NCBI GenBank assembly: GCA_030639305.1 | Contig: DAOWCY010000012.1 | Span: 954-64,953, forward strand | DNA: 64,000 nt | From: Candidatus Aminicenantes bacterium | GTDB lineage: Bacteria > Acidobacteriota > Aminicenantia > UBA2199 | Direction of reading: 5' to 3' | Shown: piece by piece, positions 2,893 through 18,048 of the stretch | How positions within the stretch are numbered: the stretch's first letter is position 1 | How the letters are laid out: each line of letters starts with the position of its first letter | Program-made: the position numbers and the translations under genes | Notes under the pieces: model-generated | Databases searched by the model: none | Told to the model about the DNA's origin: nothing | What the model saw: only the letters and a program-made list of their open reading frames with translations

Positions 2893-2986
2893 AAACAAAA
2901 AGCGTCCGGCGTCCGCGCCGCGGGCTTGTTTAAGACTTGACCCTGTTAATATTAATAGGAAAATTACAAAATCTTGTAAAATTGCA

Positions 2987-3014: not shown

Positions 3015-3020
3015 TGCATT

Positions 3021-4202
3021 ATGAAAAACAATTACATACCCCGGCTGCTTCGTGTACCGGGCCGGTCTTTTTTTCTTTTCGGACCAAGAGGTGTCGGGAA
3101 AAGTACATGGCTAAAAAAAAACATGCCGGATGCTTTTTTCTTTGATCTGCTCGATTCTTCGCTTTACCTGGAATTTTCGCGCAATCCGGCGAGCCTCGAG
3201 GCCATGATCGGGAATATTCCCGAAGATTCCTGGATTGTGATCGACGAAATCCAAAAAATTCCTACCCTGTTAGATGAAGTGCATCGCTTGATAGAAAAAA
3301 AAAACTGGCGCTTTGCGTTATGTGGGTCATCTGCCAGGAAGTTACGCCGCGGTGGAGTTAACCTGCTGGGTGGCCGGGCCCTCACCCGCAATCTCGATGC
3401 TTTTTCCTATGCGGAGCTCGGGGCTGCCTTCGATTTGGACTTTTCGCTCCAATGGGGGTTATTACCCTGGGTGCAATTGGAAAAAGAAAACGCGGCGGAT
3501 ATCCTGGATTCCTATGTAAACACCTACATCAAAGAGGAAATAAAGGAAGAAGGCATTATCAGGCGTATACCGCCATTTTTGCGTTTTTTAAAAATTGCCG
3601 GACAAATCAACGGACAATTATTAAATGCTCAAAATATTTCCCGCGAGGCCATGGTGCCGCGAGCCAGCGTAGATGTGTATTTTTCTATCCTGGAAGATAC
3701 GCTTTTAGGTCATTTTCTCCCGGCCTATCGTCCCGGTGCGAAAATTCGGGAGCAAACTCATCCAAAATTTTATTGGTTCGATCCCGGCGCTGCCAGGAGC
3801 GCTGCCGGTTTGCTTTTTGAGCCTATCGACAGGACCTGGAAAGGCACGGCGCTGGAGACGATGATTTACCATGAACTGAGAGTTTTTAATCATACCCGGA
3901 ACAGGAATCGCGATATCTTTTTCTATCGAACAGCAAGTGGTACGGAAATCGATTTTGTAATCGAGACACGGAAACGGCAGCCATCATCCGTCCCTCATTT
4001 AGTCTGCATCGAGGTAAAGCTGGCTGAAAAATGGAAATCTTCATGGGAACGCGCCATGCGTTCTTTGCAGAGCAGTGATAGAATCCAGGTCGATCGCATG
4101 ATAGGGGTTTATACCGGTGCAAGAACATATCACGTCAACGGCCTGGATGTACTGCCGGTGGAGGAGTTTCTTAAAAGACTTTACCGGGGGGATGTTTTTT
4201 AG
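3021..4202 (+). CDS. AAA_14 ATPase with DUF4143 / PD-(D/E)XK C-terminus
   Basis: FGPRGVGKST, IVIDEIQK, FFYRTASGTEIDFVIE...CIEVK; ORF track starts at GTG 3006. Confidence 0.9.
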   Translation: MKNNYIPRLLRVPGRSFFLFGPRGVGKSTWLKKNMPDAFFFDLLDSSLYLEFSRNPASLEAMIGNIPEDSWIVIDEIQKIPTLLDEVHRLIEKKNWRFALCGSSARKLRRGGVNLLGGRALTRNLDAFSYAELGAAFDLDFSLQWGLLPWVQLEKENAADILDSYVNTYIKEEIKEEGIIRRIPPFLRFLKIAGQINGQLLNAQNISREAMVPRASVDVYFSILEDTLLGHFLPAYRPGAKIREQTHPKFYWFDPGAARSAAGLLFEPIDRTWKGTALETMIYHELRVFNHTRNRNRDIFFYRTASGTEIDFVIETRKRQPSSVPHLVCIEVKLAEKWKSSWERAMRSLQSSDRIQVDRMIGVYTGARTYHVNGLDVLPVEEFLKRLYRGDVF

Positions 4203-4460: not shown

Positions 4461-6839
4461 ATGACTCAAAAAAAGAGGGCTGCAAATAGAACAAAAGACG
4501 AACTCTTGCAGGACGTCACCGAACGCAAGAGGGCTGACGAGGCGTTGCGTACAGGACAGAGTAATGCTCAAAAATACTTAGATATAGTTGAAGTTATGTT
4601 AGCTGCCGTAAATGAAAAAGGGGAGATTACCCTCATCAACCGCAAAGGCTGTAGGGTGCTGGGTTATAAAGAAAGCGAACTATTGGGTAAGAATTGGTTC
4701 GCCGTCTGCCTGCCGGAGCAAATCAGCGCGAATGTGGAGGCTGTTTTCCATGAGTTGTTGGCCGGGAATATCGAGCCGTTGGAATACTCTGAGAACCCGG
4801 TGCTGACGAAGTCCGGTGAAGAAAGAGTCATCGCCTGGCATAATAGTGTGTTGAAGGATGAGACCGGCAGGATCGTAGGTGTCCTGAGTTCGGGTGAGGA
4901 CATCACCGAACGCAGGGAAATGGAAGAAAAACTGCGGGAAAGTGAACAGCGCTATCGTTTGTTGGTAGACAGCGCCGGCGAGGGCATCGGGGTCATCCAG
5001 GGTACCCAGTTTTGCTTTGCCAACCCGAAGCTGTTGGAAATATCCGGCTTCAGCGAAGAAGAGATAATGTCCCGGTCGATTTTTGATTTCGCTTTGCCCG
5101 AAGACCGAGAGATGTTGGCGGAACGCCTTAATAAAAAGTTGGCGGGCGAGGCGTTAGATACCGATTATGTATTCAGGATTATTGCCAAAGATAAAAGTGT
5201 CAGGTGGGTGAGATCCAATTCGGTGACGATAGAGTGGGAAGGCAGACCGGCGACGTTAAACTTCTTTGCCGATGTTAGCGACCGGGTAGCCATGGAAGAG
5301 AAAATCAAGACCGCGGCCCGGGAATGGCATACCACTTTCGATGCCATCAATGACGCCATTTCACTTCTCGACGCCGATAGGAGGGTGCTGCGGGCCAATA
5401 AAACCCTGGCAAGACTCTTAGGAAAATCTTTTGCAGAGATCATCGGTTTTCGCTGTTATGAACTTTTGCAATGTGAACGTGAATCCAGCGGGCCCTGTCC
5501 TTTTGAGCGCATGTTAAAAAGCCGGCGCCGGGAAACTGAGGAACTGCTCCTGCGTGAATGCCGGTGCGAAGGAATCGTAGACCCGATCTTCGCTGAATCG
5601 GGGCACTTGAAGGGAGCCGTCTATATTGTCAAAGATATCGGCGAACGCAGGCGCAGCGAAGAACAGATCAGGCGGCAGAACGAGTTCTTGAACACCGTTA
5701 TGGAATCTTTGACTCACCCCTTTTACATCGTGGACGTCCGGGATTACAGCATCGTAATGGCCAACCCGGCGGCCCGGAAAAGTCTTTCAACAAGAGGCTC
5801 CACCTGTTACCAAATCACCCACGGCCGCGATGAACCCTGTACCGGGTCCCGGCACCCCTGCCCCATCCAGGAGGTGAAAGAGAGCAAGAAACCGGCCAGG
5901 GTAGAACATATCCATACCGGCCGGCAAGGGGGAAAGAGGAATCTTGAGATTCATGCGTATCCAATTTTCGATGAGGCGGGAGAAGTGAAACAGATCATCG
6001 AATATACCATAGATATTAGCGAACGCCGCAAAGCCGAAAAGATGGCCGGGTTACAGCAGGAACAATTACTCCAGGCCGATAAGATGATCAGCCTGGGTAT
6101 CCTGGTATCCGGTGTGGCCCATGAGATCAATAATCCCAACAACTCCATCGCGTTGAATGCCCAGTTTTTGGATAAGGCCTGCCGCAGTGTGCTGCCCATT
6201 TTAGATGAATACTACAGGGAGAACGAATCGCTGCAGGTGGGCGGAATAGAGTACGGGAAATTCCGTGAAAAGGCGCCTTTTTTGTTTTCCGGTATCTTAG
6301 ACAGTTCCAGGCGCATCCAGCATATTGTCCGGGAGTTGAAGTCTTTTTCCCGTAAAGACGCGGCTGATACGCAGGCGCCGGTGGATTTGAATGCGGTGGT
6401 CAAATCCGCCGTCGGTTTGATGAGCAACATTATAAAAAAATCCACCCGCAATTTCCAGGCTACTTACGGCAGGGGACTGCCCCGGGTGCTGGGGGATTTT
6501 CGGAAATTGGAGCAGGTGATTATTAATTTAGTTCAGAATGCCTGCCAGGCCCTTGCCGCCCCGGGGAAAGGGATTTCCTTGTCTACCTGTTATGACCGGG
6601 AGAACCGGCAGGTGGTGGTAATAGTTGAAGATGAAGGCGTGGGCATACCTAAAGAAGACTTGAAGCATATCGCGGATCCCTTTTTTACGACTAAACGCAG
6701 TTCCGGCGGCACCGGCTTAGGGCTGTCGGTGTCGCAGCGCATCGTAAACGACCACAGCGGTACGCTTCATTTTTCTTCTACCCCCGGAGAGGGCACCACG
6801 GTGGAGGTTCGTTTCCCCCTCCTGGAGAAGAAACCATGA
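4461..6839 (+). CDS. Multi-PAS sensor histidine kinase (about 4 PAS/PAC domains, HisKA, HATPase)
   Basis: GVAHEINNPN H-box, NLVQNA N-box, DEGVG, FFTTK, GTGLGL; ATGA overlap with the regulator. Confidence 0.95.
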   Translation: MTQKKRAANRTKDELLQDVTERKRADEALRTGQSNAQKYLDIVEVMLAAVNEKGEITLINRKGCRVLGYKESELLGKNWFAVCLPEQISANVEAVFHELLAGNIEPLEYSENPVLTKSGEERVIAWHNSVLKDETGRIVGVLSSGEDITERREMEEKLRESEQRYRLLVDSAGEGIGVIQGTQFCFANPKLLEISGFSEEEIMSRSIFDFALPEDREMLAERLNKKLAGEALDTDYVFRIIAKDKSVRWVRSNSVTIEWEGRPATLNFFADVSDRVAMEEKIKTAAREWHTTFDAINDAISLLDADRRVLRANKTLARLLGKSFAEIIGFRCYELLQCERESSGPCPFERMLKSRRRETEELLLRECRCEGIVDPIFAESGHLKGAVYIVKDIGERRRSEEQIRRQNEFLNTVMESLTHPFYIVDVRDYSIVMANPAARKSLSTRGSTCYQITHGRDEPCTGSRHPCPIQEVKESKKPARVEHIHTGRQGGKRNLEIHAYPIFDEAGEVKQIIEYTIDISERRKAEKMAGLQQEQLLQADKMISLGILVSGVAHEINNPNNSIALNAQFLDKACRSVLPILDEYYRENESLQVGGIEYGKFREKAPFLFSGILDSSRRIQHIVRELKSFSRKDAADTQAPVDLNAVVKSAVGLMSNIIKKSTRNFQATYGRGLPRVLGDFRKLEQVIINLVQNACQALAAPGKGISLSTCYDRENRQVVVIVEDEGVGIPKEDLKHIADPFFTTKRSSGGTGLGLSVSQRIVNDHSGTLHFSSTPGEGTTVEVRFPLLEKKP

Positions 6840-8251
6840 CTGAATTAAAATTTCCCGGTTGCCCGGTTTTGATCGTGGACGATGAGGAGAATACCCTGCG
6901 CAGTTTCGAGATCACTTTGAACTCCGCAAAGATCGACAATATCGTGCTCTGCCGGGACAGCCGCCGCGTACTGCCTCTTTTGCAAGAACAGGAATTCGAG
7001 CTGCTGCTGTTGGACCTGACCATGCCCCATATCGGCGGTGAAGAACTGCTGCCCCGGGTAGTCCATGATTTTCCCCACATCCCGGTGATTATCATTACCG
7101 GCAATATGGAGATCGACATCGCGGTGAAATGCATGCAGGCCGGGGCTTTCGACTACATGGTCAAACCGGTGGAAGAGAAACGGCTGATCTCCGGCGTGAG
7201 CCGGGCCATCGAACGCAACCGCCTGCAGCGGGAAAACCTGACCTTGAGAAAACAACTGCTCGGCGGCGAATTGTCCCATCCCGAAACCTTTGCCCCTATC
7301 GTTACCTGCAGCCCGGCCATGATTTCTATATTCAAATACATCGAAGTGATTGCCGCCAGTCCCGAACCGGTGCTTTTAACCGGCGAGACCGGGGTAGGCA
7401 AAGAGTTGATAGCCCGGGCCATCCACGAAGCCGGAGGCCGGAAAGGGAAACTGGTTTCCACAAATGTGGCCGGGCTGGACGACACCATGTTTTCCGATAC
7501 CCTGTTCGGCCATAAAAAAGGGGCCTTTACCGATGCCCGCGAATCCCGCGGCGGTTTGATCGAACAGGCTTCCGGCGGCACCCTGTTTTTAGATGAGATC
7601 GGGGATTTGAGTCCCGCCTCCCAGGTAAAATTGCTCAGGCTGCTCCAGGAGCGGGAATACTTCCCCTTAGGTTCCGATATCGCCCGCCACAGCGACGCCC
7701 GCATCGTGGCCGCCACCAACCGGGAATTAGCGGCATCTTTAGAAGCAGGAAAGTTTCGCAAGGACCTATATTACCGGCTGGAAGTCCATCATATCTATAT
7801 CCCGCCCCTGCGCCGCCGCCGGGAAGATATCGTGCCTTTAGTTGCTCATTTCTTAGAAGAGGCGGGCAAAGCCCTTAATAAAAAAAAGCCTACCCCTCCG
7901 AAAGAGCTTTTTGTTTTGTTGGACAGCTATCCTTTTCCCGGCAATGTGCGTGAAATCCGCGCCATGGTATTCGATGCGGTAAGCACCCATACTGCCGGGA
8001 TACTTTCCATGGCAAGCTTTAAAAAGACCATCGCACAAAAAAGGAAAACCCTGTGCCCGGTGATAGAGCCGGCGGCAGGGCAGCCTGGAGAACCTATCGT
8101 TTTGCAATTTTCCAGGCCGCTGCCTACGCTGGCTAAGGCTGAGGGGATGCTGGTTAAGGAAGCGTTGAAACAGGCAAAAGACAACCGGTCGATAGCGGCC
8201 CAACTGTTGGGTATTTCGCGCCAGACCCTGATCCGCAAGCTCAAAAAGTAA
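6836..8251 (+). CDS. Sigma54-dependent response regulator (NtrC family)
   Basis: Receiver LLDLTMP, GETGVGKE, GAFTDA loop, LFLDEIG, RKDLYYRL, FPGNVRE, Fis-type HTH. Confidence 0.97.
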   Translation: MTELKFPGCPVLIVDDEENTLRSFEITLNSAKIDNIVLCRDSRRVLPLLQEQEFELLLLDLTMPHIGGEELLPRVVHDFPHIPVIIITGNMEIDIAVKCMQAGAFDYMVKPVEEKRLISGVSRAIERNRLQRENLTLRKQLLGGELSHPETFAPIVTCSPAMISIFKYIEVIAASPEPVLLTGETGVGKELIARAIHEAGGRKGKLVSTNVAGLDDTMFSDTLFGHKKGAFTDARESRGGLIEQASGGTLFLDEIGDLSPASQVKLLRLLQEREYFPLGSDIARHSDARIVAATNRELAASLEAGKFRKDLYYRLEVHHIYIPPLRRRREDIVPLVAHFLEEAGKALNKKKPTPPKELFVLLDSYPFPGNVREIRAMVFDAVSTHTAGILSMASFKKTIAQKRKTLCPVIEPAAGQPGEPIVLQFSRPLPTLAKAEGMLVKEALKQAKDNRSIAAQLLGISRQTLIRKLKK

Positions 8252-8325: not shown

Positions 8326-8345
8326 GGGGGGCTTTCCCCCTTTTT
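8326..8345 (+). terminator. Rho-independent terminator after the regulator
   Basis: GGGGG(G)-CTTT-CCCCC followed by TTTTT. Confidence 0.65.
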
Positions 8346-8484: not shown

Positions 8485-8501
8485 CCGGCAAGAGAATTGC
8501 T
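8485..8501 (+). promoter_or_regulatory. Sigma54 -24/-12 promoter
   Basis: CCGGCAAGAGAATTGCT: GG at 8487-88, exactly 10 nt, then GC at 8499-8500. Confidence 0.7.
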
Positions 8502-8514: not shown

Positions 8515-8904
8515 ATGAAAAGACAACGTATACTCCTGACCGGTGAAAAAAAAGAAAACGCGCTGCCCCTGAGCCTTTTCCTGGAAGGTCAGGATTTCCG
8601 CGTTACGGTGGAAGAAAACAGCAGCCGTTTCGTGAAACAAGTTCGCGGCGGTGAAAACGCCGCGTCCTCCTTCGACCTGCTGGTTGCCGGAACGCAGATG
8701 CCGGAAAAATTATTAATCGAACTGCTGTTGAAATTGGAAATTTCAAAAGTGAAGGTTCCCCTTATTTTGATCTCCGATAACGGCAGGCGACCCTGGTTCG
8801 AGCTCCTTAAAAGCAGTTATCCCGGTTTACGTTTATACGCAGTCAAACCTACCGAACCCCAGGAACTGGTTAAGGTAGTAAAAAAAATTTTCGAGGAACA
8901 ATGA
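8515..8904 (+). CDS. Degenerate (pseudo-)receiver domain protein
   Basis: CheY-like pattern DLLVAGTQMP has Gly at the phospho-Asp position; AVKP Lys retained. Confidence 0.65.
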   Translation: MKRQRILLTGEKKENALPLSLFLEGQDFRVTVEENSSRFVKQVRGGENAASSFDLLVAGTQMPEKLLIELLLKLEISKVKVPLILISDNGRRPWFELLKSSYPGLRLYAVKPTEPQELVKVVKKIFEEQ

Positions 8905-10025
8905 GCAATAAAATTTTATTGGTAGACGACGAAAAATTGTTTTTACAGAGCTTAAAACAGGGCCTGGATCATCTTAACGATACGGTGGAAACGGATATTT
9001 GTTTTTCTGTAGCCGAGGCCATCAAACGTTTAAAAAAGGCCGATTATGAGCTAATCATAACCGATATCCGTATGCCCGGCAAATCGGGGATAGACCTGCT
9101 GCTCTATCTAAAGATGAATGATTTTTCCGGCGCTGTCAAAGTGATGTCCGCTTATACCACAGACGATACCCTGAAAAAAATCAATTCCCTGGGCATTCTC
9201 GACGTGATTAGCAAACCTTTCGATTTCGAGTGGTTCGAAGGCATGATCGTCGATTTTTTCAAAAAAAGGAAAGAAACCGCGGTGACTTTCGAATCCATCG
9301 ATTTGTTGAGCGTCATGCAGGTCATCAACTTAGACAAGAATACCTCGGCCTTAGAAATAGAGATCGAAGATAAAAAAGGGATGATATATTTCGAGGATGG
9401 CGAGATGACAGATGCGGAATACCTGGGTTTAAGGGGAAAAGAAGCGGTCTTAAAATTGATTGCCCAACGTAAAGGAAATATATTAGTAAAAAAGATCAAA
9501 AATAAAATCGAAAGAACCATAAATGTGCCCTTCGTCGAATTTATGCTGGACATGATGAAGCAGATAGATGAATACAGGAACGGAGGGGCAGCGGAACCGG
9601 GAACAGCACCCGAAGAAGATGAAATTTTGGTTTTATTAAAAAATAACAACATCGAGGAGGATAATATGATGTATGGTAAAGAAGTCTTGACCGTCCTCAA
9701 ACGGGACGTCGAAGGACTGATGGTCGCTTCGATTTTCGGTAGGGACGGTCTCCCCGTCGTGGTTGAGAACCCGGAAAATCTTGACATCGATGCTTTTTCA
9801 GCCAAGTTCGCCATGGTGAACGCCCTGGTATCGAAAAGTGTGAAAGACCTTTCCGGCGGCAAGGTGTCGGAAATCCTGGTGGAAGAAGAGAATGGCTGGA
9901 TCCTGGTACGGCCTATAACGGGTACGGATATGATGTTGATCGTGGCCGTTTCCTCTAATGCCACTTTAGGCAATGTGCGTTTTGTCGCCAAGAAGCTGGT
10001 GGCCGACCTGGAAAAAATGAGCTAA
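8901..10025 (+). CDS. Receiver - DUF4388 - Roadblock/LC7 (MglB-like) fusion
   Basis: LLVDDE/IITDIRMPG/SKPF receiver; DLLSVMQVINLDK...GMIYFEDGEMTDA DUF4388; VEGLMVASIFGRDGL...ATLGNVRF Roadblock. Confidence 0.85.
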   Translation: MSNKILLVDDEKLFLQSLKQGLDHLNDTVETDICFSVAEAIKRLKKADYELIITDIRMPGKSGIDLLLYLKMNDFSGAVKVMSAYTTDDTLKKINSLGILDVISKPFDFEWFEGMIVDFFKKRKETAVTFESIDLLSVMQVINLDKNTSALEIEIEDKKGMIYFEDGEMTDAEYLGLRGKEAVLKLIAQRKGNILVKKIKNKIERTINVPFVEFMLDMMKQIDEYRNGGAAEPGTAPEEDEILVLLKNNNIEEDNMMYGKEVLTVLKRDVEGLMVASIFGRDGLPVVVENPENLDIDAFSAKFAMVNALVSKSVKDLSGGKVSEILVEEENGWILVRPITGTDMMLIVAVSSNATLGNVRFVAKKLVADLEKMS

Positions 10026-10051
10026 GTTTTTAGAAATTTAGGAGGATTAAC

Positions 10052-10522
10052 ATGGCTACAGAAGAACAAAAAAAGAAACAATTGGTCAGGGTTTTCTCCC
10101 TTATGATCGGGGGCTTGGCCAAAGGTATTTACGATTTATTTGAAGATTCCGCTTATGCATTAATGAAGTCGGTAGGCGAGAATTTATTGGATGTGATGCA
10201 GAAAGAAATGGGACTGGAAATAGAAGGCGAAGACCCCGCCGATATGTTAAACGAACTGCTGCGCATCTGGGTGGATGAAATCGGTTTCATCGAGGAAGCC
10301 AAAGTGGAAGAAACCGAAAACGGTTGGGTCGTAACCGGCAGTGGCTGCAAAGGCTGGAACCTGACGCAAAAATTATTGGCCAGCGGGATTAAAGAACCCT
10401 TTACCTGTCCCATCATGAATTCCATGAACGCGGGCCTCGGTAAAATGGGCGTAAAAACCCATATACACATCGAACCCCTACCGAAAGTCAGGGGTACTAA
10501 GTTTACCCTGACAAAGGCGTAG
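10052..10522 (+). CDS. Hypothetical protein, V4R / small-ligand-binding-like
   Basis: Helical N-terminus, then GC...CPI cysteines and a terminal beta strand; strong AGGAGGA RBS; fold call is by pattern only. Confidence 0.5.
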   Translation: MATEEQKKKQLVRVFSLMIGGLAKGIYDLFEDSAYALMKSVGENLLDVMQKEMGLEIEGEDPADMLNELLRIWVDEIGFIEEAKVEETENGWVVTGSGCKGWNLTQKLLASGIKEPFTCPIMNSMNAGLGKMGVKTHIHIEPLPKVRGTKFTLTKA

Positions 10523-10531
10523 AGAATGCAC

Positions 10532-10598
10532 GTAGGGGTTTGATCCAGCAAACCCGGAGAACCGCGGCGGCGTAAAATTGTGCGTCGCCGCAGTTCTC
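10532..10598. repeat. GTAG-type REP hairpin plus a second GC-rich hairpin inside the operon
   Basis: GTAG-GGGTTTG..CAAACCC; GAGAACCGCGGCGGCG..CGTCGCCGCAGTTCTC. Confidence 0.65.
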
Positions 10599-10625
10599 GG
10601 CGGGTAGTTAACATTTGATTTTAAA

Positions 10626-11951
10626 ATGTACCGGGAAGATAACATGGATGTGAAACGATTAGAAACAGCGGAAGAAATCCTATTCTTTAAAAGAAACGAT
10701 ACCCTGACCCACCAGCAGGACCAGTATTACCAGGACCTTTTTTACCGGGTGCTGAAAATCGGCACCGAATTAGAATTCGCCAGACCGAGAAAAGTAGACG
10801 TCAACGAACTGCGCGGCGATATCATAAAATTAATGAAACCTTCCCGCGACCTGCAAAACTTAGGCGAATTAGGCGTCTTCGATGTGGTGAAAGACCACTG
10901 CGGCGTAGAAGTGCAGGTGATAGGCAGGCATCCTCACTGGAATGCCCTGCTGGACCAGTACTACCGCATCGTCTCCATCCTGCTGGAAAGGAATGTCAGG
11001 ATAAGACCCACCTGCGGTTTGCACTTCCATCTTATTGCCGTGGGCCTGTCCGAATCCATCCCCGATATCATCCTGGCCAACCTGTGGAACCTCTTCCGCC
11101 GTCATGCCCCGGGTTTAAAGTTCATGTTCAGCGGCGGCAGCGACCCCATGGGCATCTGCCGCCGCCGCCAGCACAATCCCCACCAGGAGGTCATGGCCCT
11201 GTCGCCCAACGACTTCCCCATGGCCCAAATCAAAGAAAAACTCACAAACAGCCTGCTGGTGCCGGAACACCAGAATGTGTTTAACCTGGAACATTTGTTT
11301 TTTAACGGTAATGGACACCTGGGCAACTTCCACATCGAAATGCGTTTCCCCGACGGCGACCTGGCCCCCACCTCCATTGTTGCCAAAACCTTCCTCTTCT
11401 TTGCCTTAGTGCTGAAAGCCGTGGAAATATCCAAATACGGCCTGATCCGCACCGGGGCAGAAGCCGACTGGCAGCGCAAAAAACAACTGCTGAACGCCTT
11501 GAGCAATAACGAAGGCAACCTGGCTATGAGCGACACTTCCGGCATCGGCCCAGCCGAAATTAGCGAACTGCAAGATAATGCCTTAGACCTGTTGATTTTT
11601 CTCAAATCCATATTTAATAAGTTCACCAACCCCGCTTATACGGTTCTCAAAAGCCTGGCTCTCAACCCCATCTCTTTGCGGAGAATCGAAAAAGATGATT
11701 GGATCGTCATCGAGAACGACCTGAGCAGCAAAGCCAGGTATCCCCAATTTCTCGATAAAACCGACGCGAATATTATCAAAATCATCGAATTGGGCTTAGA
11801 AAGGAATAAAACCTCGGCAGCGGAATGGCTGGCTCATACGTCAATTAGGATCAATCTCCCCGAACAGGAACTCAAACAAAGAATCGACCGCTATATCGAA
11901 AAGTATCCTATCTGGGACAATGAATCGGGCTCTTTTGCCTTTCTAAGGTAG
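10626..11951 (+). CDS. Putative amidoligase (Amidoligase_2; COOH-NH2 ligase of the glutamine synthetase/gamma-GCS fold)
   Basis: KIGTELEF, GVEVQV, PTCGLHFHL, HIEMRFPD motifs; alternative start 10644. Confidence 0.8.
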   Translation: MYREDNMDVKRLETAEEILFFKRNDTLTHQQDQYYQDLFYRVLKIGTELEFARPRKVDVNELRGDIIKLMKPSRDLQNLGELGVFDVVKDHCGVEVQVIGRHPHWNALLDQYYRIVSILLERNVRIRPTCGLHFHLIAVGLSESIPDIILANLWNLFRRHAPGLKFMFSGGSDPMGICRRRQHNPHQEVMALSPNDFPMAQIKEKLTNSLLVPEHQNVFNLEHLFFNGNGHLGNFHIEMRFPDGDLAPTSIVAKTFLFFALVLKAVEISKYGLIRTGAEADWQRKKQLLNALSNNEGNLAMSDTSGIGPAEISELQDNALDLLIFLKSIFNKFTNPAYTVLKSLALNPISLRRIEKDDWIVIENDLSSKARYPQFLDKTDANIIKIIELGLERNKTSAAEWLAHTSIRINLPEQELKQRIDRYIEKYPIWDNESGSFAFLR

Positions 11952-11959
11952 GCAGCGTC

Positions 11960-12766
11960 ATGTGTGGATTAACCGGCATTCTCATCGGCAAAACCTACTC
12001 GGAAAAGGAACTGCTGCAGGTAAAAGAACTCTTTACCCGCACCCTGCTGGCCCACGAAGAAAGGGGCCGGGAAGCCACCGGGGCAATAGCTCTCCGCCCC
12101 GACGGCAGTTACACCATGATCAAAGAACCGCAGCCGGCCTGCGAGTTCATCGAAACCGGCAAGTACCGGGATTTTCTCGACACCTGGGATAGTAGTGTCT
12201 GCACCATCTTAGGACATACCCGCAAACCCACCAAAGGGAGCCGCTGGAACCCCCTCAACAACCACCCCGTCATCGTAGGGGAGACAGTAGGCATTCATAA
12301 CGGCACCATCAGCAACGACGACTCCATTTTTGAAAAGGAAGAATTCCACCGGAACGGCGAAGTGGACAGCGAAGTGATATTCTCCCTGCTCAACAGTATC
12401 CCCGGGAACAAGAAAAACGACCGCGCCGGGTTCGCAGCGGCAATACAAACCTGCACCGCCAAACTAACCGGTTCATTTACCACTATTTCTCTTAGTTTCA
12501 AAGAACCGCGCAAACTGCTGCTGCTGAAATACAACCAGCCCCTCTCCTACCATTACTCCAAAAACCTGGACACCTTTTTTTTTACCTCCCGCTACATTTT
12601 CCTGCGCAAAGCTTTCGGCCGCTCCGTGGTGACAGAGGCTATGCCCGGCAGGACAGCTTTTATCTTCGACCTCTCCAACGTCTCCCTGCCCCGGGGCGGC
12701 CCCATTTCCCAGTTTTCCATCTCCGCGGCGGAAGAAAAAACCGCCGCCGGCGAGGTGAAAAAATAA
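11960..12766 (+). CDS. Class II (Ntn) glutamine amidotransferase, standalone
   Basis: MCGLTG N-terminal Cys, LGHTR, NHP, HNGTI, DSEVI. Confidence 0.9.
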   Translation: MCGLTGILIGKTYSEKELLQVKELFTRTLLAHEERGREATGAIALRPDGSYTMIKEPQPACEFIETGKYRDFLDTWDSSVCTILGHTRKPTKGSRWNPLNNHPVIVGETVGIHNGTISNDDSIFEKEEFHRNGEVDSEVIFSLLNSIPGNKKNDRAGFAAAIQTCTAKLTGSFTTISLSFKEPRKLLLLKYNQPLSYHYSKNLDTFFFTSRYIFLRKAFGRSVVTEAMPGRTAFIFDLSNVSLPRGGPISQFSISAAEEKTAAGEVKK

Positions 12767-12795
12767 GGAAAACCATTACAAATAGGAGGTTTGAT

Positions 12796-13833
12796 ATGGA
12801 ATTATCGAAAGAAGAGCAAAAGAAAGAAGAAAACCACCCACTAAGCATTTATAACATTTGCGGAAAAATCGATCTCGGTATTTTAATACTGGATTCTAAA
12901 AAAAAGGAAATTATTTTTTCAAACCACTATTATAAAAAACTGGCCGGCGATTCCCAGCGGTTGATATTGGATAATATTTTTAAATGTTTGCAGTCGAAAA
13001 ATATCCGTATGCACCGGGAAGTCGATATCCCCGGTGTTTTAATCGGTTACTCGGTCTATCGAGCAGCGCCGGAAGAATATTTAATTTTAATGAGCGACAT
13101 TTCCAACCGCAAGATTTTTTTAGAAACCAGGGAGGAAAACCTCTACTATTCCAAATTAGCGAACTTTATGGCGGAAATATCCCATGAAATCGGCAACCCG
13201 CTCACCTCTGTTATCACTACTCTCCAGGTGCTTTTGAAGAATATCCCGGCCTGGAACAGCGAACAAAAAGGAGACTATATCAACCAATCCATCGATGAAC
13301 TTAAGCGCTTATCGAAGTTTCTAAGCAAAGTACGCCATCTCTCCGAAGAAGATAAAATCGAAAAAAAGAAAATCTTTTTGGAACCGGTGTTAGAACGGCT
13401 TTATTTGCAAAACAGGGCTTTGTTGGCAGCCGGCAGCGTATCCTTTACTTATGATATAGATAAAAAAATTGCCGTGGTGGCTGACGAAGACGCTCTATAC
13501 CGGGTGTTTTTTAATCTTTTGCAAAATTCCTTAGACAGCCTGCCGGGCACGGGCACAGAGGCGATGATTTCCGTACACATCGAAAAAGCGGACGATTTTT
13601 TTGTCAAGCTGGTTTATGAAAACAACGGCCCCCCCATCTCTTATGATAAGTTAGAGAAAATATTTTTGCCTTTTGTCACTACCAGGGAAGCAGGCAGGGG
13701 CATGGGTTTGAATATTTCGCGAAAATTGATGACCCGCATGGGCGGCGCCATTAAAGCGGAAATGCCCGCCGGGGAAGGCAGCCTCGGAGTTAGGTTTGTC
13801 TTATATATCCCTATACAGGAGGAGGGTTCATGA
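12796..13833 (+). CDS. Cytoplasmic histidine kinase with degenerate PAS-like N-terminus
   Basis: EISHEIGNPL, NLLQNS, FLPFVTT, GRGMGL; atypical G1 box ENNGPP. Confidence 0.9.
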   Translation: MELSKEEQKKEENHPLSIYNICGKIDLGILILDSKKKEIIFSNHYYKKLAGDSQRLILDNIFKCLQSKNIRMHREVDIPGVLIGYSVYRAAPEEYLILMSDISNRKIFLETREENLYYSKLANFMAEISHEIGNPLTSVITTLQVLLKNIPAWNSEQKGDYINQSIDELKRLSKFLSKVRHLSEEDKIEKKKIFLEPVLERLYLQNRALLAAGSVSFTYDIDKKIAVVADEDALYRVFFNLLQNSLDSLPGTGTEAMISVHIEKADDFFVKLVYENNGPPISYDKLEKIFLPFVTTREAGRGMGLNISRKLMTRMGGAIKAEMPAGEGSLGVRFVLYIPIQEEGS

Positions 13834-14102
13834 AAGGGCAGTCGGTCGAGGGGCCGCAGCCGATAAAAGAGGAAGAAATGATTTCTTCGCCATCGAAAAA
13901 TCTCCACAGGGAAGAAAGGTTTTGCCTCGTGGCTCATGAGTTGATCGATATTTTCACTATTATCTGCGGGTATAGCGAATTATCCCTGGAAACGCTAACC
14001 GAAGGCACAAAAGAGAAGAAGAATTTGAAAAAGGTCCTGGCCGCGGCGGACCGTGGCATAGAGATGATCGGGAATTATTTTAGCGCATCCGAACGTTGTT
14101 AA
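13830..14102 (+). CDS. Standalone HisKA-like (phosphoacceptor/dimerisation) mini-protein
   Basis: VAHELIDIFTIICGYSELSLE...LKKVLAAADRG resembles an H-box helix pair; no ATPase domain; ATGA overlap with the kinase. Confidence 0.6.
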   Translation: MKGQSVEGPQPIKEEEMISSPSKNLHREERFCLVAHELIDIFTIICGYSELSLETLTEGTKEKKNLKKVLAAADRGIEMIGNYFSASERC

Positions 14103-14354: not shown

Positions 14355-14383
14355 TTGACTCTTTTTCCTGGCAGTGCTATAAT
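14355..14383 (+). promoter_or_regulatory. Strong sigma70 promoter with extended -10
   Basis: TTGACT-N17-TATAAT preceded by TGC. Confidence 0.75.
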
Positions 14384-14447: not shown

Positions 14448-15377
14448 GTGAATTTGAACCGTAGAAATTATGAACTTATAACTACAGCAGTACTCCTTGC
14501 AGCCGGTACGGGGAGTCGCCTGTATCCTTTGACGAAGAACATGCCTAAATGTCTTACAATGGTTAACGGGACGTCCATACTTGAACGACTTGTCATCTGT
14601 TTGAATCAGCAAGGCTTCAAGCGCCTTGTTGTGGTCACAGGGTACCTGGAAAATAGTATTCGGGAGTATCTAAAAACGCGGGCTGGCGGTATGACAATCG
14701 ATTATATTTTCAGTCCGCTTTATAAGACGACCAATAACATATATTCACTATGGATGGCCCGTGAAATTATTAATGAGCCGTTTTTGTTGGTCGAAAGCGA
14801 TCTTGTTTTTGACGAATCCCTGTTGGATGACATGCGTGATCCTGACAGAATTGCCATTGCAAGCATGGAGGCGTGGATGAACGGTTCCACCGTAACAGTC
14901 AATCAATCTCAACAGGTTAAGAGATTCCAAATCGGTATTACCGGGCCTTTGGATGAGATCAGGTACAAGACTGTTAATATTTACAGTTTTTCGCTCTCTT
15001 CATGGCATGCTATTGTAGAAAGACTTGACGAGTACATTTCAGACGGCAGAGTAAACTGCTATTATGAAACCGTATTTGAGGAAATGGTGGCTGACGGCAG
15101 CCTCTGTCTTCAAACAGTCTCTTTTGATGCTAACCCCTGGTATGAAATAGACACAATTGCGGATCTGGAAGAAGCTGAGAGACTATTTCCAGCAGATAAA
15201 CTTGAAACAATAATTCCTTACTCGGAAACGGAAACGGTTACTCGTTCACTTCCCGGTTTAAGAGCATCCCCTCAGTCCAATTTTTTATTTATGAAGCCGA
15301 TTCATGATCCTAATATTAAAGAAAATAAAGTATCACCAAAAGAAAAATCAAAAAGAAGTGGATATGGCGCATTATAA
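14448..15377 (+). CDS. Phosphocholine/phosphoethanolamine cytidylyltransferase family (LicC-like NTP transferase)
   Basis: LAAGTGSRLYPLTKNMPKCL, YKTTNNIYSLW, LVESDLVF, WYEIDTIADL; GTG start. Confidence 0.85.
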   Translation: MNLNRRNYELITTAVLLAAGTGSRLYPLTKNMPKCLTMVNGTSILERLVICLNQQGFKRLVVVTGYLENSIREYLKTRAGGMTIDYIFSPLYKTTNNIYSLWMAREIINEPFLLVESDLVFDESLLDDMRDPDRIAIASMEAWMNGSTVTVNQSQQVKRFQIGITGPLDEIRYKTVNIYSFSLSSWHAIVERLDEYISDGRVNCYYETVFEEMVADGSLCLQTVSFDANPWYEIDTIADLEEAERLFPADKLETIIPYSETETVTRSLPGLRASPQSNFLFMKPIHDPNIKENKVSPKEKSKRSGYGAL

Positions 15378-16485
15378 TTATAAGACTCAAACGGAAAAAT
15401 ACGAATTCATCTCCGGGCAGCATGGTGGTTACTATCGTCATGGTTTTATAGACCATGCTTATCTTTATAATCTCTATTTCCCTCCGGAGGCGATTTTTAC
15501 AAGATTTAAAAATCAAATCCATGACATTGTCCTGAACTACCCGGTTGCACAGGATGCTCTTGCCGCTCTTATCGGTAATCTAATCCATCAACCTGCTGAA
15601 AGAATAGTTGTAGGAAACGGCGCTTCCGAACTCATCAAAATATTATGCGGTCACATATCCGGCAAGTTAATCGTTCCGGTGCCTTCTTTTAATGAATATG
15701 CGAATGCAGCGGCGATAGGCCGGGTCGTTGAATTTCCTCTTGAATTTCCATCCTTCCATCTTGATGTGGATAAGTTCGCTGCCGAAGCGATCAGGGTTGA
15801 AGCTGATGTGGCTGTTGTGGTAACGCCTAATAATCCAACATCTATGCTGGTCCCCAGGTCCGCCCTAATATGTCTTGCACAAAAACTTGCAAATCATGAC
15901 TGTATGCTGATCGTCGATGAATCCTTCATGGATTTTGTGCAAAACCCGGAGCAGACAACCCTGGAACATGAAATCGAACGTTACCCCAATATGGCAATCT
16001 TTAAAAGCATGAGCAAAGCCTATGGTATCTGCGGTCTCAGGATCGGCTATATGCTTACAGCAAATTCAGCATTTGCCGAAACTGTACGAAAAGGCGTGCA
16101 TATCTGGAATATTAACGGATTTGCCGAAGAGTTTTTGCGGCTTTTGCCCGGTTACAGACAGGAGTTTGCCGAAAGCTGTAAACAGGTACTGATCGATAGG
16201 GACAATCTGTATGAAAACCTGTGCTCTGTCCAGGGGATGACCGTTTACAAACCCGATGCAAACTTTGTTTTCTGCCGCCTTCCCGATTATGCACAAAGTG
16301 CCCCTGAAGTAACGCGGCGATTGTTTATTGAGCATAACATGTATATAAAACACTGCCGAGACAAAACTCTCCCGGATTCCGATCGTTATATTCGTATTGC
16401 CAGCCGTACCGAAACAGAGAATTGCAATTTAGTTGAAGCATTGACAAATATCATTGACTTGAAAAAAGTGGAAATAAAAAAATAA
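15364..16485 (+). CDS. PLP-dependent class I/II enzyme (CobD/HisC-like; possible phospho-amino-acid decarboxylase)
   Basis: GNGASELI, TPNNPT, VDESFMDF, KSMSKAYGICGLRIGY. Confidence 0.85.
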   Translation: MAHYNYKTQTEKYEFISGQHGGYYRHGFIDHAYLYNLYFPPEAIFTRFKNQIHDIVLNYPVAQDALAALIGNLIHQPAERIVVGNGASELIKILCGHISGKLIVPVPSFNEYANAAAIGRVVEFPLEFPSFHLDVDKFAAEAIRVEADVAVVVTPNNPTSMLVPRSALICLAQKLANHDCMLIVDESFMDFVQNPEQTTLEHEIERYPNMAIFKSMSKAYGICGLRIGYMLTANSAFAETVRKGVHIWNINGFAEEFLRLLPGYRQEFAESCKQVLIDRDNLYENLCSVQGMTVYKPDANFVFCRLPDYAQSAPEVTRRLFIEHNMYIKHCRDKTLPDSDRYIRIASRTETENCNLVEALTNIIDLKKVEIKK

Positions 16486-17141
16486 TGAAAGATTCACAAT
16501 CTCAACAATCACAGCAGACCGGAATGCTTACTTTTGCCGGAGATCTTCCAAATATCTGTTCGCTTGCAGGGCTGTTATGTGCGCTCCTTGGTATATACTA
16601 CGCTATTCTGGGCAACTTTCCTGCTGCAATAATCGGAATGATCTGGGCTGTATTTTTTGACTGGGGTGACGGAATCATTGCCCGTCGGATGAAGGGGCGA
16701 ACTGAAGAATATCGTGCTTTCGGGGGACAGCTTGACTCGTTGATAGATATTGTAAGTTTTGGAATTCTTCCTGCTGTTCTTCTCTTGAGCTATGGAGAAT
16801 TCAGTCCCTGGTTCCTGCCGGGAGCGTTCGTGATAGTCGCGGTCAGTGCAATACGGTTGAGTTATTTCAATGTATTCGGCCTGATCGATGATTCGACTTA
16901 CATGGGATTGGCGCTTGATAATAATGTCATCATTCTTGCTTTTGTTTTCCTGTTTGACGGCTTTCTCAGTAAGACGATTTTTTCAGTCATTATATATTCG
17001 ATGTGTATGGTTATGGCTGCCTTTAATTTAGCACCGGTTCGAACACCCAAGTTTACGGGAAGGTGGTTTTATGTTCTTTTGTTTTATACCCTGGGATTGA
17101 CAGCTATCTATGGCTGGATACTGTGGAACAAATATCAATAA
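16485..17141 (+). CDS. CDP-alcohol phosphatidyltransferase
   Basis: DWGDGIIARR...GGQLDSLID signature; multiple TM segments. Confidence 0.9.
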   Translation: MKDSQSQQSQQTGMLTFAGDLPNICSLAGLLCALLGIYYAILGNFPAAIIGMIWAVFFDWGDGIIARRMKGRTEEYRAFGGQLDSLIDIVSFGILPAVLLLSYGEFSPWFLPGAFVIVAVSAIRLSYFNVFGLIDDSTYMGLALDNNVIILAFVFLFDGFLSKTIFSVIIYSMCMVMAAFNLAPVRTPKFTGRWFYVLLFYTLGLTAIYGWILWNKYQ

Positions 17142-17160
17142 AATTGAAGCAATTATTAAT

Positions 17161-18048
17161 ATGAAAAAAGGGAAAAAGTATATACCTGGCTATCAACCGG
17201 TGAATCACCACGACCCCACCGGACAACAGATCGACGATGCAGCCGTCAAGCGCTATTTTGATAGTGCAAGGATTGGCTCAGGAGCCAATGTCAGTATTCT
17301 AGCCCATGAGCACAATCTCCCGGCCAGTGCGGCCAGATATCGGCTGCACAAAGAGATACGAACTATCAGTGATTGGCTCAACGCGGTGTATGACTCGGGG
17401 CGAGTGCTTGATGTTGGCTGTGGTGCAGGGACCTGGACAGAGATATTCGCCAGGCGCTATAAGACTGTCATAGGAATCGAGCAAAGTAGCCTGATGTTGA
17501 AGGCTGCCAGGGAAAGGGTGGCTCGTCTGCCCAATGTTAAGATACTCGAAGGTGACGGTCGACATGACCTTCCGGAAGGCGCCTTCGACATGATCTTCCT
17601 GGGTGGCCTGTGTATGTATCTGAATGACCTCGACGTTATGGCGCTGCTCCACTCTTTGAAAAACCGTCTTATTGAAGGGGGGTCGATTATCCTCCGCGAA
17701 TCGACTGTACATCAGGGTGTATCCCTATCACGGGGTGAGTATCAGGCAGTCTACCGAAGTGTAAACCTGTACCGTCAATTGTTCGATGGCGCGGGTTCCT
17801 TTCGTGTGGAAGTGCGGCGGAACTTCGGTTACACCAATTTGGTGACTGCAGAGGAGTTGGTTAATCTGCGTCGCAGGTGGCTGCCATTCTTACCCGGGGA
17901 TTCTACCACGCTTGGCTCCTTGACGTGGTGGGTGCTCAGAGGGACCGCGCCGATAAGCTTCTGGGCTCTGCCGCGGCTGCTCTCCCAACTCAACATCCCG
18001 TGGCCCGGATTACAAAATCACTTCTTCAGGCTGCGCCTTGTTGATTAA
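17161..18048 (+). CDS. Class I SAM-dependent methyltransferase
   Basis: VLDVGCGAG motif I, GIEQS, FDMIFLGGLCMYL. Confidence 0.9.
   Translation: MKKGKKYIPGYQPVNHHDPTGQQIDDAAVKRYFDSARIGSGANVSILAHEHNLPASAARYRLHKEIRTISDWLNAVYDSGRVLDVGCGAGTWTEIFARRYKTVIGIEQSSLMLKAARERVARLPNVKILEGDGRHDLPEGAFDMIFLGGLCMYLNDLDVMALLHSLKNRLIEGGSIILRESTVHQGVSLSRGEYQAVYRSVNLYRQLFDGAGSFRVEVRRNFGYTNLVTAEELVNLRRRWLPFLPGDSTTLGSLTWWVLRGTAPISFWALPRLLSQLNIPWPGLQNHFFRLRLVD

Follow-up and report, generated by a model that had tools for sequence, protein, structure and literature searches.

The seven closely packed, co-oriented open reading frames (ORFs) at positions 8515–14102 of the forward strand (Table 1) are an example of a conserved cellular signalling cassette. 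The cassette is a PATAN-Roadblock/Bet3-like module, which in most other phyla also contains an MglA-like small GTPase, and its strictly linked unit consists of the Bet3-like protein, a predicted ligase and a class II glutamine amidotransferase (GATase). The window (the whole 64 kb stretch of DNA that was analysed) belongs to a chromosome and has tig, clpX, lon and rho close by, and DNA runs matching the sequence were found in cold-seep metagenomes only. The original prediction of seven mostly coupled genes, preceded by PAS kinase and sigma54 activator genes, agrees with the ORF coordinates (gaps of 8–103 nt and two 4-nt overlaps) and with the Pfam matches of the two upstream genes. No published description of the cassette was found.

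Table 1. Features of the cassette and of the region upstream.
Feature	Position	Strand	Basis and spacing
Cytoplasmic PAS x4 HisKA-HATPase histidine kinase	4461..6839	+	Pfam PAS_4, PAS_9, PAS_3, HisKA, HATPase_c
Sigma54-dependent response regulator, REC - AAA+ (Sigma54_activat) - HTH_8	6836..8251	+	Pfam; NCBIfam NtrC/AtoC-like
Terminator-like hairpin GGGGGGCTTTCCCCC then T run, 3' of activator gene	8326..8340	+	Consensus scan and sequence
Candidate sigma54 -24/-12 promoter CGGCAAGAGAATTGCT	8486..8501	+	GG-N10-GC with TTGCT
Pseudo-receiver, 129 aa	8515..8904	+	Sequence read; no acidic pocket, no phospho-acceptor Asp
Receiver - PATAN (DUF4388/PatA_N) - Roadblock/LC7 protein	8901..10025	+	Pfam; 4-nt overlap with 8515..8904
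Bet3/TRAPPC3/V4R/H-NOX-fold protein, 156 aa	10052..10522	+	AF2 and Foldseek; 26-nt gap after 8901..10025
Glutamine-synthetase-fold ATP-dependent carboxylate-amine ligase (predicted), 441 aa	10626..11951	+	Fold; 103-nt gap after 10052..10522
Stand-alone class II (Ntn) GATase domain, 268 aa	11960..12766	+	GATase_6; 8-nt gap after ligase
Cytoplasmic histidine kinase	12796..13833	+	HisKA and HATPase_c; 29-nt gap after GATase
Doubtful 90-aa ORF, lineage-specific	13830..14102	+	H-box-like stretch; 4-nt overlap with 12796..13833

Species genomes from about ten phyla show strong conservation of the cassette core. The Bet3-like gene is located directly 5' of the ligase gene in 70 of 73 loci, and the ligase is followed by the GATase gene in 60 of 69. 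The ligase and GATase genes often overlap, and the gap between them has a median of 10 nt. An adjacent GATase is missing from 7–8 of the 69 genomes (about 10%) and is thus not indispensable. PATAN, Roadblock and receiver domains are encoded in 43/45, 44/45 and 40/45 related loci respectively; an MglA-like GTPase (TVPGQ and NKxD motifs) is found in 25/45, but is absent from this window. In a reverse test starting at the Bet3-like gene, the ligase came next in 36 of 37 metagenome loci, and independent gene calls combined with Pfam gave the same gene order in L081–L083. In about 95% of the informative loci, which span about ten phyla, the ligase and GATase co-occur with the signalling genes (PATAN, Roadblock, receiver) and a V4R/Bet3-like gene; the association is therefore not peculiar to this window, and the pair does not part from signalling genes elsewhere.

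The ligase represents a family outside Pfam and NCBIfam: searches for Pfam, NCBIfam, PHROG or PDB sequence matches were negative, even at E≤10 for the families. The AlphaFold (AF2) model has a pLDDT of 87, and all 26 PDB matches with E≤1e-3 in a Foldseek search are glutamine synthetase (GS)-fold ligases (YbdK, 1r8g/1tt4; GS; and Dop). Dop structures match at E 7e-5 to 5e-4 and are surpassed by YbdK and phage amidoligases, the latter heading the structure matches in a viral library. The family has invariant E-x-E (E48/E50), H-x-H (H133/H135) and E-x-R (E238/R240) motifs, and the C-terminal half of the model is large and helical. The predicted "amidoligase" is therefore correct as to the fold, which is shared with GS, YbdK, Dop and phage amidoligases, but not as to membership in Pfam Amidoligase_2, for which neither HMM nor hhalign gave a signal. 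The family comprises 305 homologues, is absent from IMG/VR and is cellular only. An ordinary glutamate-cysteine ligase is ruled out, since no GCS2, GshA or Gln-synt HMM matched and the ligase profile retrieved only 259 representative clusters from 1.84 billion proteins.

The class II assignment of the GATase is borne out by a GATase_6 match (E 3.5e-11, 43.7 bits against a cutoff of 27) and by an MCG start that provides the Cys2 nucleophile. The best NCBIfam match is the N-terminal domain of GlmS (1e-14), with EgtC reaching only 1e-3, and the PHROG match is "glutamine amidotransferase" (7e-17). Judged by sequence, the domain appears closer to the glutaminase domains of true amidotransferases than to EgtC, which fits a role as ammonia donor. 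The MCG, R..PTKG, HNG and VDSE motifs are conserved in 57 orthologues; the protein keeps the Cys nucleophile and the oxyanion Asn-Gly, as well as an Arg/Asp pair for holding a free α-carboxylate and α-amine.

The 156-aa protein preceding the ligase has no match in the Pfam library searched; a newer Pfam release labels its relatives PF27323 RdxA_C. Its AF2 model (pLDDT 94) matches Bet3, TPC6, H-NOX and PoxR-V4R in Foldseek, so that its description as V4R-like holds at the level of fold, without Pfam support. In a 53-sequence alignment, the N-terminus (MATxxxKK) is nearly invariant, with M1, A2 and K7 invariant across phyla and T3 and K8 nearly so, whereas the C-termini vary; a Cys99/Cys119 pair is also conserved. 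The protein is a candidate carrier or sensor of an amide. The conserved N-terminus may also be no more than a dimer or partner interface.

The first gene of the cassette gave a weak Response_reg match under the Pfam cutoff (E 5e-4), and the label "pseudo-receiver" is right because its product has neither the acidic pair nor the phospho-Asp (ILLTGEK, DLLVAG); its L002 and L085 orthologues share 31% identity across 125 aa. The expected receiver-DUF4388-Roadblock architecture of the second product was recovered by Pfam (Response_reg, 4e-19; DUF4388, 1e-11; Robl_LC7, 2.6e-6), and this receiver is canonical (DD, D54 and K105). Its probable partner is the histidine kinase encoded in the cassette, whose identity was confirmed by both Pfam kinase domains; the kinase has the H-box EISHEIGNPLT and same-position orthologues in L001 and L003 (37–44% identity). 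The last ORF, described earlier as a free HisKA, fared poorly: it contains an H-box-like stretch (VAHELIDIF...) that matches a VirA-like kinase in its DHp region (NCBIfam, E 7e-4), and has neither a Pfam match nor an orthologue in any related locus compared.

Upstream of the cassette, the PAS x4 kinase and the sigma54 activator (Sigma54_activat, 4e-57; Response_reg, 9e-24; plus HTH_8) are probably partners. The stop of the kinase gene overlaps the activator start by 4 nt, and orthologous pairs are present in L001–L004. The element CGGCAAGAGAATTGCT has two mismatches to TGGCAC-N5-TTGCW, is one of four such sites on the + strand of the 64 kb, and ends just ~13 nt 5' of the ATG. Among 13 relatives having a sigma54 activator, 8 carry a site with at most one mismatch directly 5' of the cassette. 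Thus, the predicted -24/-12 element exists and has counterparts in relatives, but because of its two mismatches and its distance from the ATG, its function as a promoter is plausible, not proven.

We tentatively propose, at somewhat short of even confidence, that the ligase and GATase make and break a γ-glutamyl-type amide, which has the Bet3-like protein as its carrier or sensor and modulates the Roadblock/PATAN platform. Characterised GS-fold ligases (GS, γ-glutamylcysteine ligases, PuuA, GmaS and PafA) use ATP to activate the γ-carboxylate of glutamate, to which an amine is joined. By analogy, the cassette ligase probably activates the same carboxylate and produces a γ-glutamyl amide; this rule is extrapolated from enzymes with about 12% identity to the ligase. 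The GATase would cleave the bond type that the ligase makes, like EgtC and MgsA of the N-methylglutamate (NMG) pathway, so that the two enzymes together would write and erase a γ-glutamyl-type amide.

The GATase could instead act as the glutaminase of a two-subunit glutamine-dependent amidotransferase, delivering ammonia from free glutamine to the ligase, which would amidate an ATP-activated non-glutamate carboxylate. Possible targets are a small acid or a Glu/Asp side chain close to the Bet3-like N-terminus, where at least one Asp/Glu is present at positions 4–6 in every alignment row read (by eye, untallied), and the mark or product would be essentially one-way. The fixed order and tight spacing of the two genes suggest a stoichiometric complex, the GATase comes closest to the GlmS and PurF glutaminase domains, and its occasional loss is expected if free ammonium substitutes. 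However, if the ligase activates glutamate like other GS-fold enzymes, ammonia transfer would only regenerate glutamine, and the lack of an encoded eraser would be unusual in a signalling mark. Moreover, known class II amidotransferases have the glutaminase fused to the synthase, whereas characterised stand-alone enzymes of this type, such as EgtC and MgsA, cleave γ-glutamyl amides. An amidotransferase is thus rather unlikely.

The chemical logic proposed here is that of EgtA/EgtC (ergothioneine) and GmaS/MgsA (NMG pathway), in which a GS/GCS-fold ligase makes a γ-glutamyl amide and a stand-alone class II GATase-type enzyme later cleaves it. As ligase-hydrolase pairs of this kind occur in ergothioneine synthesis and in amine catabolism, the cassette might serve small-molecule metabolism (glutathione/ergothioneine-type, or amine catabolism by γ-glutamylation) beside signalling genes. 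Those pathways contain further enzymes, whereas the cassette lacks EgtB/D or Mgs partners, and no transporter, oxidoreductase, metabolic partner or other pathway gene is conserved around it in related loci. Phage pairs could point to an anti-phage or conflict system: in LUZ24, gp18 (Amidoligase_2, PF12224) is followed by gp19 (GATase_6), with a GGACT gene nearby (PMC3890496), and such pairs are a precedent for the gene order of the cassette, with GATase_6 starting within ~10 nt of a GS-fold ligase. The phage amidoligases, although the top viral fold matches, have no detectable sequence-level relation to the cassette ligase; the phage GATase is a 510-aa protein with an extra domain; and ATP-grasp, COOH-NH2_lig and GGACT genes surround the phage pair, while signalling genes are found only around the cassette pair. 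No conserved defence signature was detected, and none of the ligase, GATase and Bet3-like proteins had a match in PADLOC. Together with the chromosomal location, the cellular distribution of the ligase and the linkage to signalling genes, these results make a metabolic or conflict role very unlikely. PafA and Dop are GS-fold enzymes that write and erase a protein isopeptide through the phosphorylated γ-carboxylate of glutamate, and a PafA-like ligase linking a small protein by its C-terminal glutamate to target lysines would be consistent with the Dop fold matches and with a helical C-terminal half that could bind protein. Such Pup-like tagging is scarcely credible, since YbdK and phage amidoligases fit the fold better, the cassette has only one GS-fold enzyme, the Bet3-like C-termini are variable, no conserved small protein besides Roadblock and Bet3-like was found in 80 loci, and no proteasome or Mpa genes occur among the window genes scanned. 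The cassette's eraser candidate is, in addition, an Ntn hydrolase that could not remove peptide-linked glutamate because its pocket keeps the Asp binding a free α-amine.

Domain composition relates the cassette to MglA/MglB-type GTPase-Roadblock modules with PATAN neighbours (Myxococcus, Thermus; PMC4316618), with which it has Roadblock/LC7, PATAN and receivers in common and, in the loci that encode one, a one-operon MglA-like GTPase. The cassette adds an enzymatic core (GS-fold ligase and Ntn GATase) and the Bet3-like protein; term searches turned up no ligase in either the same Roadblock/GTPase survey or a 2024 Asgard paper. TRAPP/Ragulator and Asgard TRAPPC3/V4R likewise combine Bet3-fold and Roadblock/longin-fold proteins with a small GTPase, and Asgard TRAPPC3 binds Zn (PMC10933270, PMC2253512), to be compared with the Cys pair of the Bet3-like protein. 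In contrast to these systems, the cassette is bacterial, forms a single operon and is joined to two enzymes, and the likeness is one of folds and genes, which need not extend to GEF activity or membrane traffic.

The preferred reading, plausible by analogy, is thus still γ-glutamyl writing and erasing, or sensing of an amide by the V4R-like protein, as originally predicted. The strictly linked Bet3-like protein would carry the amide or act as its receptor, with a covalent mark on its invariant, exposed N-terminal segment (the Ala2 α-amine or Lys7) slightly favoured over a small γ-glutamyl amide or amine in its ligand pocket. The amide state would alter engagement of this protein with the Roadblock/PATAN platform, which in other phyla would act on the MglA-like GTPase, and which here would be gated by receiver phosphorylation through the kinase encoded in the operon itself. 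Transcription of the whole cassette in this lineage apparently starts from the candidate sigma54 promoter, under the PAS kinase and sigma54 activator upstream. The composition of the cassette suggests an amide bond serving as a signal.

The original prediction described seven co-oriented, mostly coupled genes in which an amidoligase and a glutamine amidotransferase (GATase) lie among signalling proteins. This operon was confirmed by its ORFs and Pfam domains, with intergenic gaps of -4, 26, 103, 8, 29 and -4 nt. The residue losses in the first ORF agree with its description as a pseudo-receiver. The last ORF, called a free HisKA, does carry an H-box-like stretch, but it lacks both a Pfam match and orthologues in related loci, and its status as a gene is doubtful. 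The presence of tig, clpX, lon and rho in the window indicates a chromosomal setting. The sequence of the region was present in four DNA runs, all of them cold-seep metagenomes, whereas no RNA sequencing run holding it was found. The observation is confirmed overall, and its interpretation as a peptide-tag or amide-messenger system is supported in part.

Features of the cassette and of the surrounding window
Feature	Position	Strand	Basis or remark
Three stand-alone ATPase genes	1245-4202 and 18177-19778		ATPase_2 / AAA_14-DUF4143 / AAA_35; flank the signalling region
Four-PAS histidine kinase	4461-6839		Pfam; upstream of the cassette
REC - Sigma54_activat - HTH_8 activator	6836-8251		Pfam; upstream of the cassette
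GC-rich hairpin and T run	8326-8340		3' of the activator gene
Candidate -24/-12 element CGGCAAGAGAATTGCT	8486-8501		two mismatches; ends ~13 nt before the ATG
Cassette, seven ORFs	8515-14102	+
Weak receiver-like ORF	8515-8904	+	E 5e-4; acidic pair and phospho-acceptor Asp lost (ILLTGEK, DLLVAG)
Response_reg - DUF4388 (PATAN) - Robl_LC7 protein	8901-10025	+	Pfam; canonical receiver by sequence; Robl_LC7 at residues 264-341, 27.5 bits against a cutoff of 23
Bet3-like protein, 156 aa	10052-10522	+	fold comparison
Ligase, 441 aa	10626-11951	+	fold comparison
GATase, 268 aa	11960-12766	+	GATase_6 (Pfam), 43.7 bits against a cutoff of 27
HisKA + HATPase_c kinase	12796-13833	+	Pfam
ORF with H-box-like stretch	13830-14102	+	no Pfam match; no orthologue in any related locus
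Sigma70-like promoter, good	14355-14383		precedes the separate downstream operon
Separate downstream operon	14448-18048		nucleotidyltransferase, class I/II aminotransferase, CDP-alcohol phosphatidyltransferase, SAM methyltransferase
Nucleotidyltransferase	21513-21956		near the signalling region
MazG gene	22286-23101		near the signalling region
TPR protein, 584 aa	23406-25160		translationally coupled to the next gene
Second PATAN (DUF4388) protein, 331 aa	25150-26145		2e-28
CHAT-domain (caspase-like) protein, 489 aa	39376-40845
Coupled ORFs	59250-59963, 59960-61132		precede the next gene
Prok-E2_A + ThiF (E1-like) + Prok-JAB fusion, 697 aa	61107-63200

Several other features of the window are listed in the table. 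The separate operon downstream, which is preceded by a sigma70-like promoter sequence and is not conserved alongside the cassette, looks like a pathway for an unusual lipid head group or a CDP-activated compound. The second PATAN protein could be a further partner in the signalling network of the cassette. The Prok-E2_A/ThiF/Prok-JAB fusion, preceded by two coupled ORFs, represents a prokaryotic module for ubiquitin-like conjugation or deconjugation that may be related to defence.

A plausible -24/-12 promoter lies in the gap that separates the cassette from the activator gene. The candidate element keeps the GG, GC and TTGCT positions, and chance alone would place about 0.02 such sites in those 175 nt. 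Of 13 relatives that carry a sigma54 activator, 8 have a correspondingly placed site with no more than one mismatch, and six activator-bearing loci (L004, L007, L011, L021, L026 and L070) have the canonical TGGCAC-N5-TTGCT at the same position. The relaxed pattern with up to two mismatches occurs at 0.14 per kb and turned up in 31 of 67 activator-less loci, so it does not discriminate, and weight is given only to correctly positioned sites with at most one mismatch. Because the window element ends so close to the start codon, the promoter is unproven.

The ligase could be placed by fold comparison alone, since sequence and profile searches against known families came back empty. It had no match in Pfam (even at E≤10), NCBIfam, PHROGs or PDB sequences. 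The Pfam Amidoligase_2 model (PF12224) gave nothing at E≤10, so its gathering score was not reached; nor did the GCS2, GshA or Gln-synt_C models (Pfam, NCBIfam) or a PDB profile search return a match. None of 30-31 homologues matched Amidoligase_2 at E≤1, and hhalign comparison of the family profile with LUZ24 gp18 gave a probability of 0.1%. An exhaustive profile search of 1.84 billion representatives retrieved only 259 clusters, all belonging to the ligase family or to a longer Cys-insert paralogue, and reached neither Amidoligase_2 nor GS. The AlphaFold model, built from a 31-sequence alignment, has a pLDDT of 87 and a pTM of 0.83. In Foldseek searches, all 26 PDB matches at E≤1e-3 are GS-fold ligases (YbdK, 1r8g and 1tt4; GS; depupylase Dop), each with a probability of at least 0.98 and with a best target-normalised TM-score of ~0.5, and in a viral structure library the list of matches is led by phage proteins annotated as 'amidoligase enzyme' (E 4e-7 to 1e-4). 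Three motifs are invariant in the family, E48-x-E50, H133-x-H135 and E238-x-R240, which by analogy with GS would be metal and ATP ligands. The protein is thus probably an active ATP-dependent carboxylate-amine ligase. The 'amidoligase' call holds for the GS-like fold and its motifs, but not for any PF12224 HMM or hhalign signal, and on the model the kinship to Pfam Amidoligase_2 is at fold level only.

No ligase-GATase fusion is present among the 150 clusters listed of the 259, the longest of which is 597 aa. Six paralogues of 520-597 aa (P0269, P0274, P0278, P0288, P0328 and P0334) were considered as Bet3-ligase fusions and rejected; their added length is a Cys-rich insert of ~100 residues, without a Pfam match, directly after the first catalytic strand (KVGIEFE). 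The ligase family was not found in IMG/VR, and a viral scan with one Cys-insert paralogue sequence found nothing.

The class II assignment of the GATase is upheld by its GATase_6 score, its N-terminal Cys nucleophile and its glutamine/gamma-glutamyl pocket motifs. The mature N-terminus reads MCG in nearly all of 57 orthologues, a few being called with VCG, and LGH.R.PTKG, G.HNG and VDSE are conserved in at least 90% of them. These motifs are predicted to supply the Ntn nucleophile and oxyanion hole, together with the Arg and Asp through which GlmS and PurF bind glutamine by its free alpha-carboxylate and alpha-amine; on motif comparison, we take them to be equivalent to GlmS R73, N98/G99 and D123. 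Similarity among NCBIfam models is highest to the GlmS N-domain (1e-14), followed by PurF (3e-7) and EgtC (1e-3). In contrast to GlmS, PurF, AsnB and GltS, which have a fused synthase domain, the window protein is a stand-alone glutaminase domain without any fused acceptor domain.

The 'V4R-like' call for the 156-aa protein is correct at fold level. Its AlphaFold model (pLDDT 94) matches Bet3/TRAPPC3/TPC6 (TM 0.5-0.6), the V4R sensory domain of PoxR (TM 0.58), H-NOX (E 2e-4) and YslB, while the Pfam V4R and TRAPP_Bet3 models gave no match even at E≤10. Annotations precomputed with a newer Pfam release assign its relatives to PF27323 'RdxA_C', and in them DUF4388 goes by the name 'PatA_N'; no publication on 'RdxA' in the PF27323 sense was found. 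Across 53 orthologues from many phyla, the N-terminus (MATEEQKK) stands out, with M1, A2 and K7 invariant and T3 and K8 almost so; further features are an acidic/Arg cluster (E56, E68, R71, D75, E76) and a Cys99/Cys119 pair that is near-invariant. Tandem duplicates, reminiscent of Bet3-family heterodimers, occur in eight loci (L036, L080, L105, L115, L117, L131, L139 and L149), and in the one inspected, L036, both copies keep the MATxxxKK N-terminus. In about ten loci (L028, L033, L034, L036, L038, L055, L107, L108, L126 and L131), a gene for a left-handed beta-helix protein of ~207 aa separates the Bet3-like gene from the ligase. Judged by eye, the protein sequence resembles a gamma-carbonic-anhydrase or CcmM N-domain protein, and it may hint at chemistry involving bicarbonate, CO2 or acyl transfer.

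The association seen in the window recurs across genomes. Ligase homologues number 305 in a large protein collection, and 127 ligase loci were located in species-representative genomes, 80 of which were surveyed. The cassette is found in more than 120 species genomes from about ten phyla. The loci come from Desulfobacterota (including every cable-bacterium genome sampled), many Chloroflexota, Acidobacteriota, WOR-3, KSB1, Calditrichota, Coatesbacteria and Cyanobacteria, as well as the gammaproteobacterium Thiorhodovibrio; cultured carriers include Thiorhodovibrio frisius and strains of Coleofasciculus and Leptolyngbya. With HMMs built from the loci themselves, and counting loci with enough flanking DNA, the Bet3-like gene is directly 5' of the ligase in 70 of 73 loci and the GATase directly 3' in 60 of 69, with a median ligase-to-GATase gap of 10 nt. 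PATAN (43/45), Roadblock (44/45) and receiver (40/45) genes accompany them, and an MglA-like small GTPase is present in 25 of 45. A reverse scan of metagenome contigs started from Bet3-like proteins bearing the N-terminal motif used as query, in loci with at least 700 nt downstream; the ligase is the next gene in 36 of 37, and slightly further on in the remaining one.

The typical gene order in Chloroflexota, confirmed by independent gene calls, is HisKA - OmpR-type regulator - REC - x - GTPase - Roadblock - PATAN-Roadblock - Roadblock - Bet3-like - ligase - GATase - REC - large PAS/GAF kinase. The window represents a sub-type (PAS kinase - sigma54 activator - cassette - kinase, no GTPase) that recurs in its closest relatives, L001-L003 (ligase identity 67-69%). 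An adjacent GATase is missing in 7-8 species (e.g. L037, L057, L069, L076 and L079), and in L009, from Ca. Electrothrix gigas, it is reduced to a 31-aa remnant (9276-9368 of that locus) beside intact Bet3-like and ligase genes. Locus L039 (5837-10102) contains two ligase-GATase pairs in perfect head-to-head inversion. The pairs score identically and no signalling genes accompany them; this arrangement in a MAG is probably a hairpin chimera produced during assembly. A filamentous and/or gliding way of life is shared by many carriers (cable bacteria, Anaerolineae, Caldilineae, Ardenticatenia, Leptolyngbya, Coleofasciculus, Caldithrix) and may link the cassette to polarity or motility.

These data show a unit of a Bet3-fold protein, a motif-intact GS-fold ligase and a motif-intact Ntn glutaminase within Roadblock/PATAN/receiver operons, with or without an MglA-like GTPase; judged from sequence, the unit looks co-transcribed. 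The cassette is real, widespread and of a signalling-plus-enzyme type. Parts of this picture have precedents: MglA/MglB modules with occasional PATAN neighbours (PMC4316618), V4R/Bet3 homology and Asgard TRAPPC3 proteins (PMC2253512, PMC10933270), and annotated Amidoligase_2 and GATase pairs in LUZ24-like phages (PMC3890496). Term searches of the MglA survey (PMC4316618) and the Asgard TRAPPC3 paper (PMC10933270) found no mention of a ligase. In the collection of papers searched, none combined amidoligase, glutamine amidotransferase and Roadblock, and searches on PF27323 and PATAN/V4R/MglA combinations returned general MglA, PATAN and TRAPPC3 papers only. The window shares a Roadblock/LC7 protein with MglA/MglB-type modules but has no cognate GTPase, as an HMM from 33 cassette GTPases had no match within the 64 kb. 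The phage-type enzyme pair and the switch-type module are each known, and their fixed union with a Bet3-fold protein appears to be undescribed.

As far as is known, characterized GS-fold ligases act by activating a glutamate at its gamma-carboxylate. Class II GATase domains, for their part, cut gamma-glutamyl-N bonds in substrates whose alpha-amine and alpha-carboxylate are free, such as glutamine, the EgtC substrate and gamma-glutamylmethylamide. Given these two chemistries, the simplest reading is that the ligase would write, and the GATase erase, the same gamma-glutamyl-type amide. The Bet3-like protein could be the carrier, with a covalent mark on its invariant, exposed N-terminal segment (the alpha-amine of Ala2, or Lys7), or the receptor of a small amide or amine in a Bet3/V4R/H-NOX-type pocket. 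The Roadblock/PATAN platform would sense the state of the Bet3-like protein and would itself be gated when the receiver in 8901-10025 is phosphorylated, probably by the kinase encoded 3' of the GATase; the PAS kinase and sigma54 activator would govern expression of the whole set. This reading, with the amide made and broken by the pair, the Bet3-like protein as carrier or receptor and a Roadblock/PATAN readout, is held tentatively, its chance of being correct falling just short of even.

The main rival is a glutamine-dependent amidotransferase in which the GATase supplies the ligase with ammonia. The tight coupling of the two genes, the GlmS-like character of the GATase and its dispensability would all suit such an enzyme; however, where a stand-alone class II GATase has a known function, it hydrolyses amides, and ammonia passed to a glutamate-activating ligase would be futile. 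This explanation is considered somewhat unlikely. Pup-like tagging is also unlikely, as no Pup-like small protein with a C-terminal Gln/Glu, accompanied by a proteasome or Mpa, is conserved in the 80 loci or the scanned parts of the window. The enzymes could instead serve ordinary thiol or amine metabolism, again an unlikely role; no conserved metabolic partner genes were found alongside the cassette. A defence role is likewise unlikely, and the ligase had no match in PADLOC.

Within the reading of an amide written and erased by the pair, a more specific version is that reversible gamma-glutamylation (or amidation) of the Bet3-like N-terminal segment is a new signalling modification, with a GS-fold writer and an Ntn eraser, relaying Glu/Gln/ATP status to Roadblock/PATAN proteins and MglA-like GTPases. 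This version is rather improbable as it stands. If true, bacteria would possess, encoded in an operon, an equivalent of the nutrient and polarity switches of TRAPP/Ragulator type, and it would be enriched in lineages that are filamentous and glide, such as cable bacteria, Anaerolineae and filamentous cyanobacteria.

Roadblock/MglB, PATAN and small-GTPase modules control bacterial polarity, motility and development, and are prokaryotic relatives of TRAPP and Ragulator. In this cassette, modules of that kind gain a Bet3-fold protein and two conserved enzymes, an addition that implies a chemical step, the making and breaking of an amide bond, within this class of switch. Knowing the substrate would reveal what a ligase family outside current sequence libraries does, and might shed light on the amidoligase-GATase pairs of phages, which are just as puzzling. 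It would also give a bacterial case in which genes for Bet3-like proteins, Roadblock proteins and GTPases are physically linked, a point relevant to how the trafficking regulators of eukaryotes arose.
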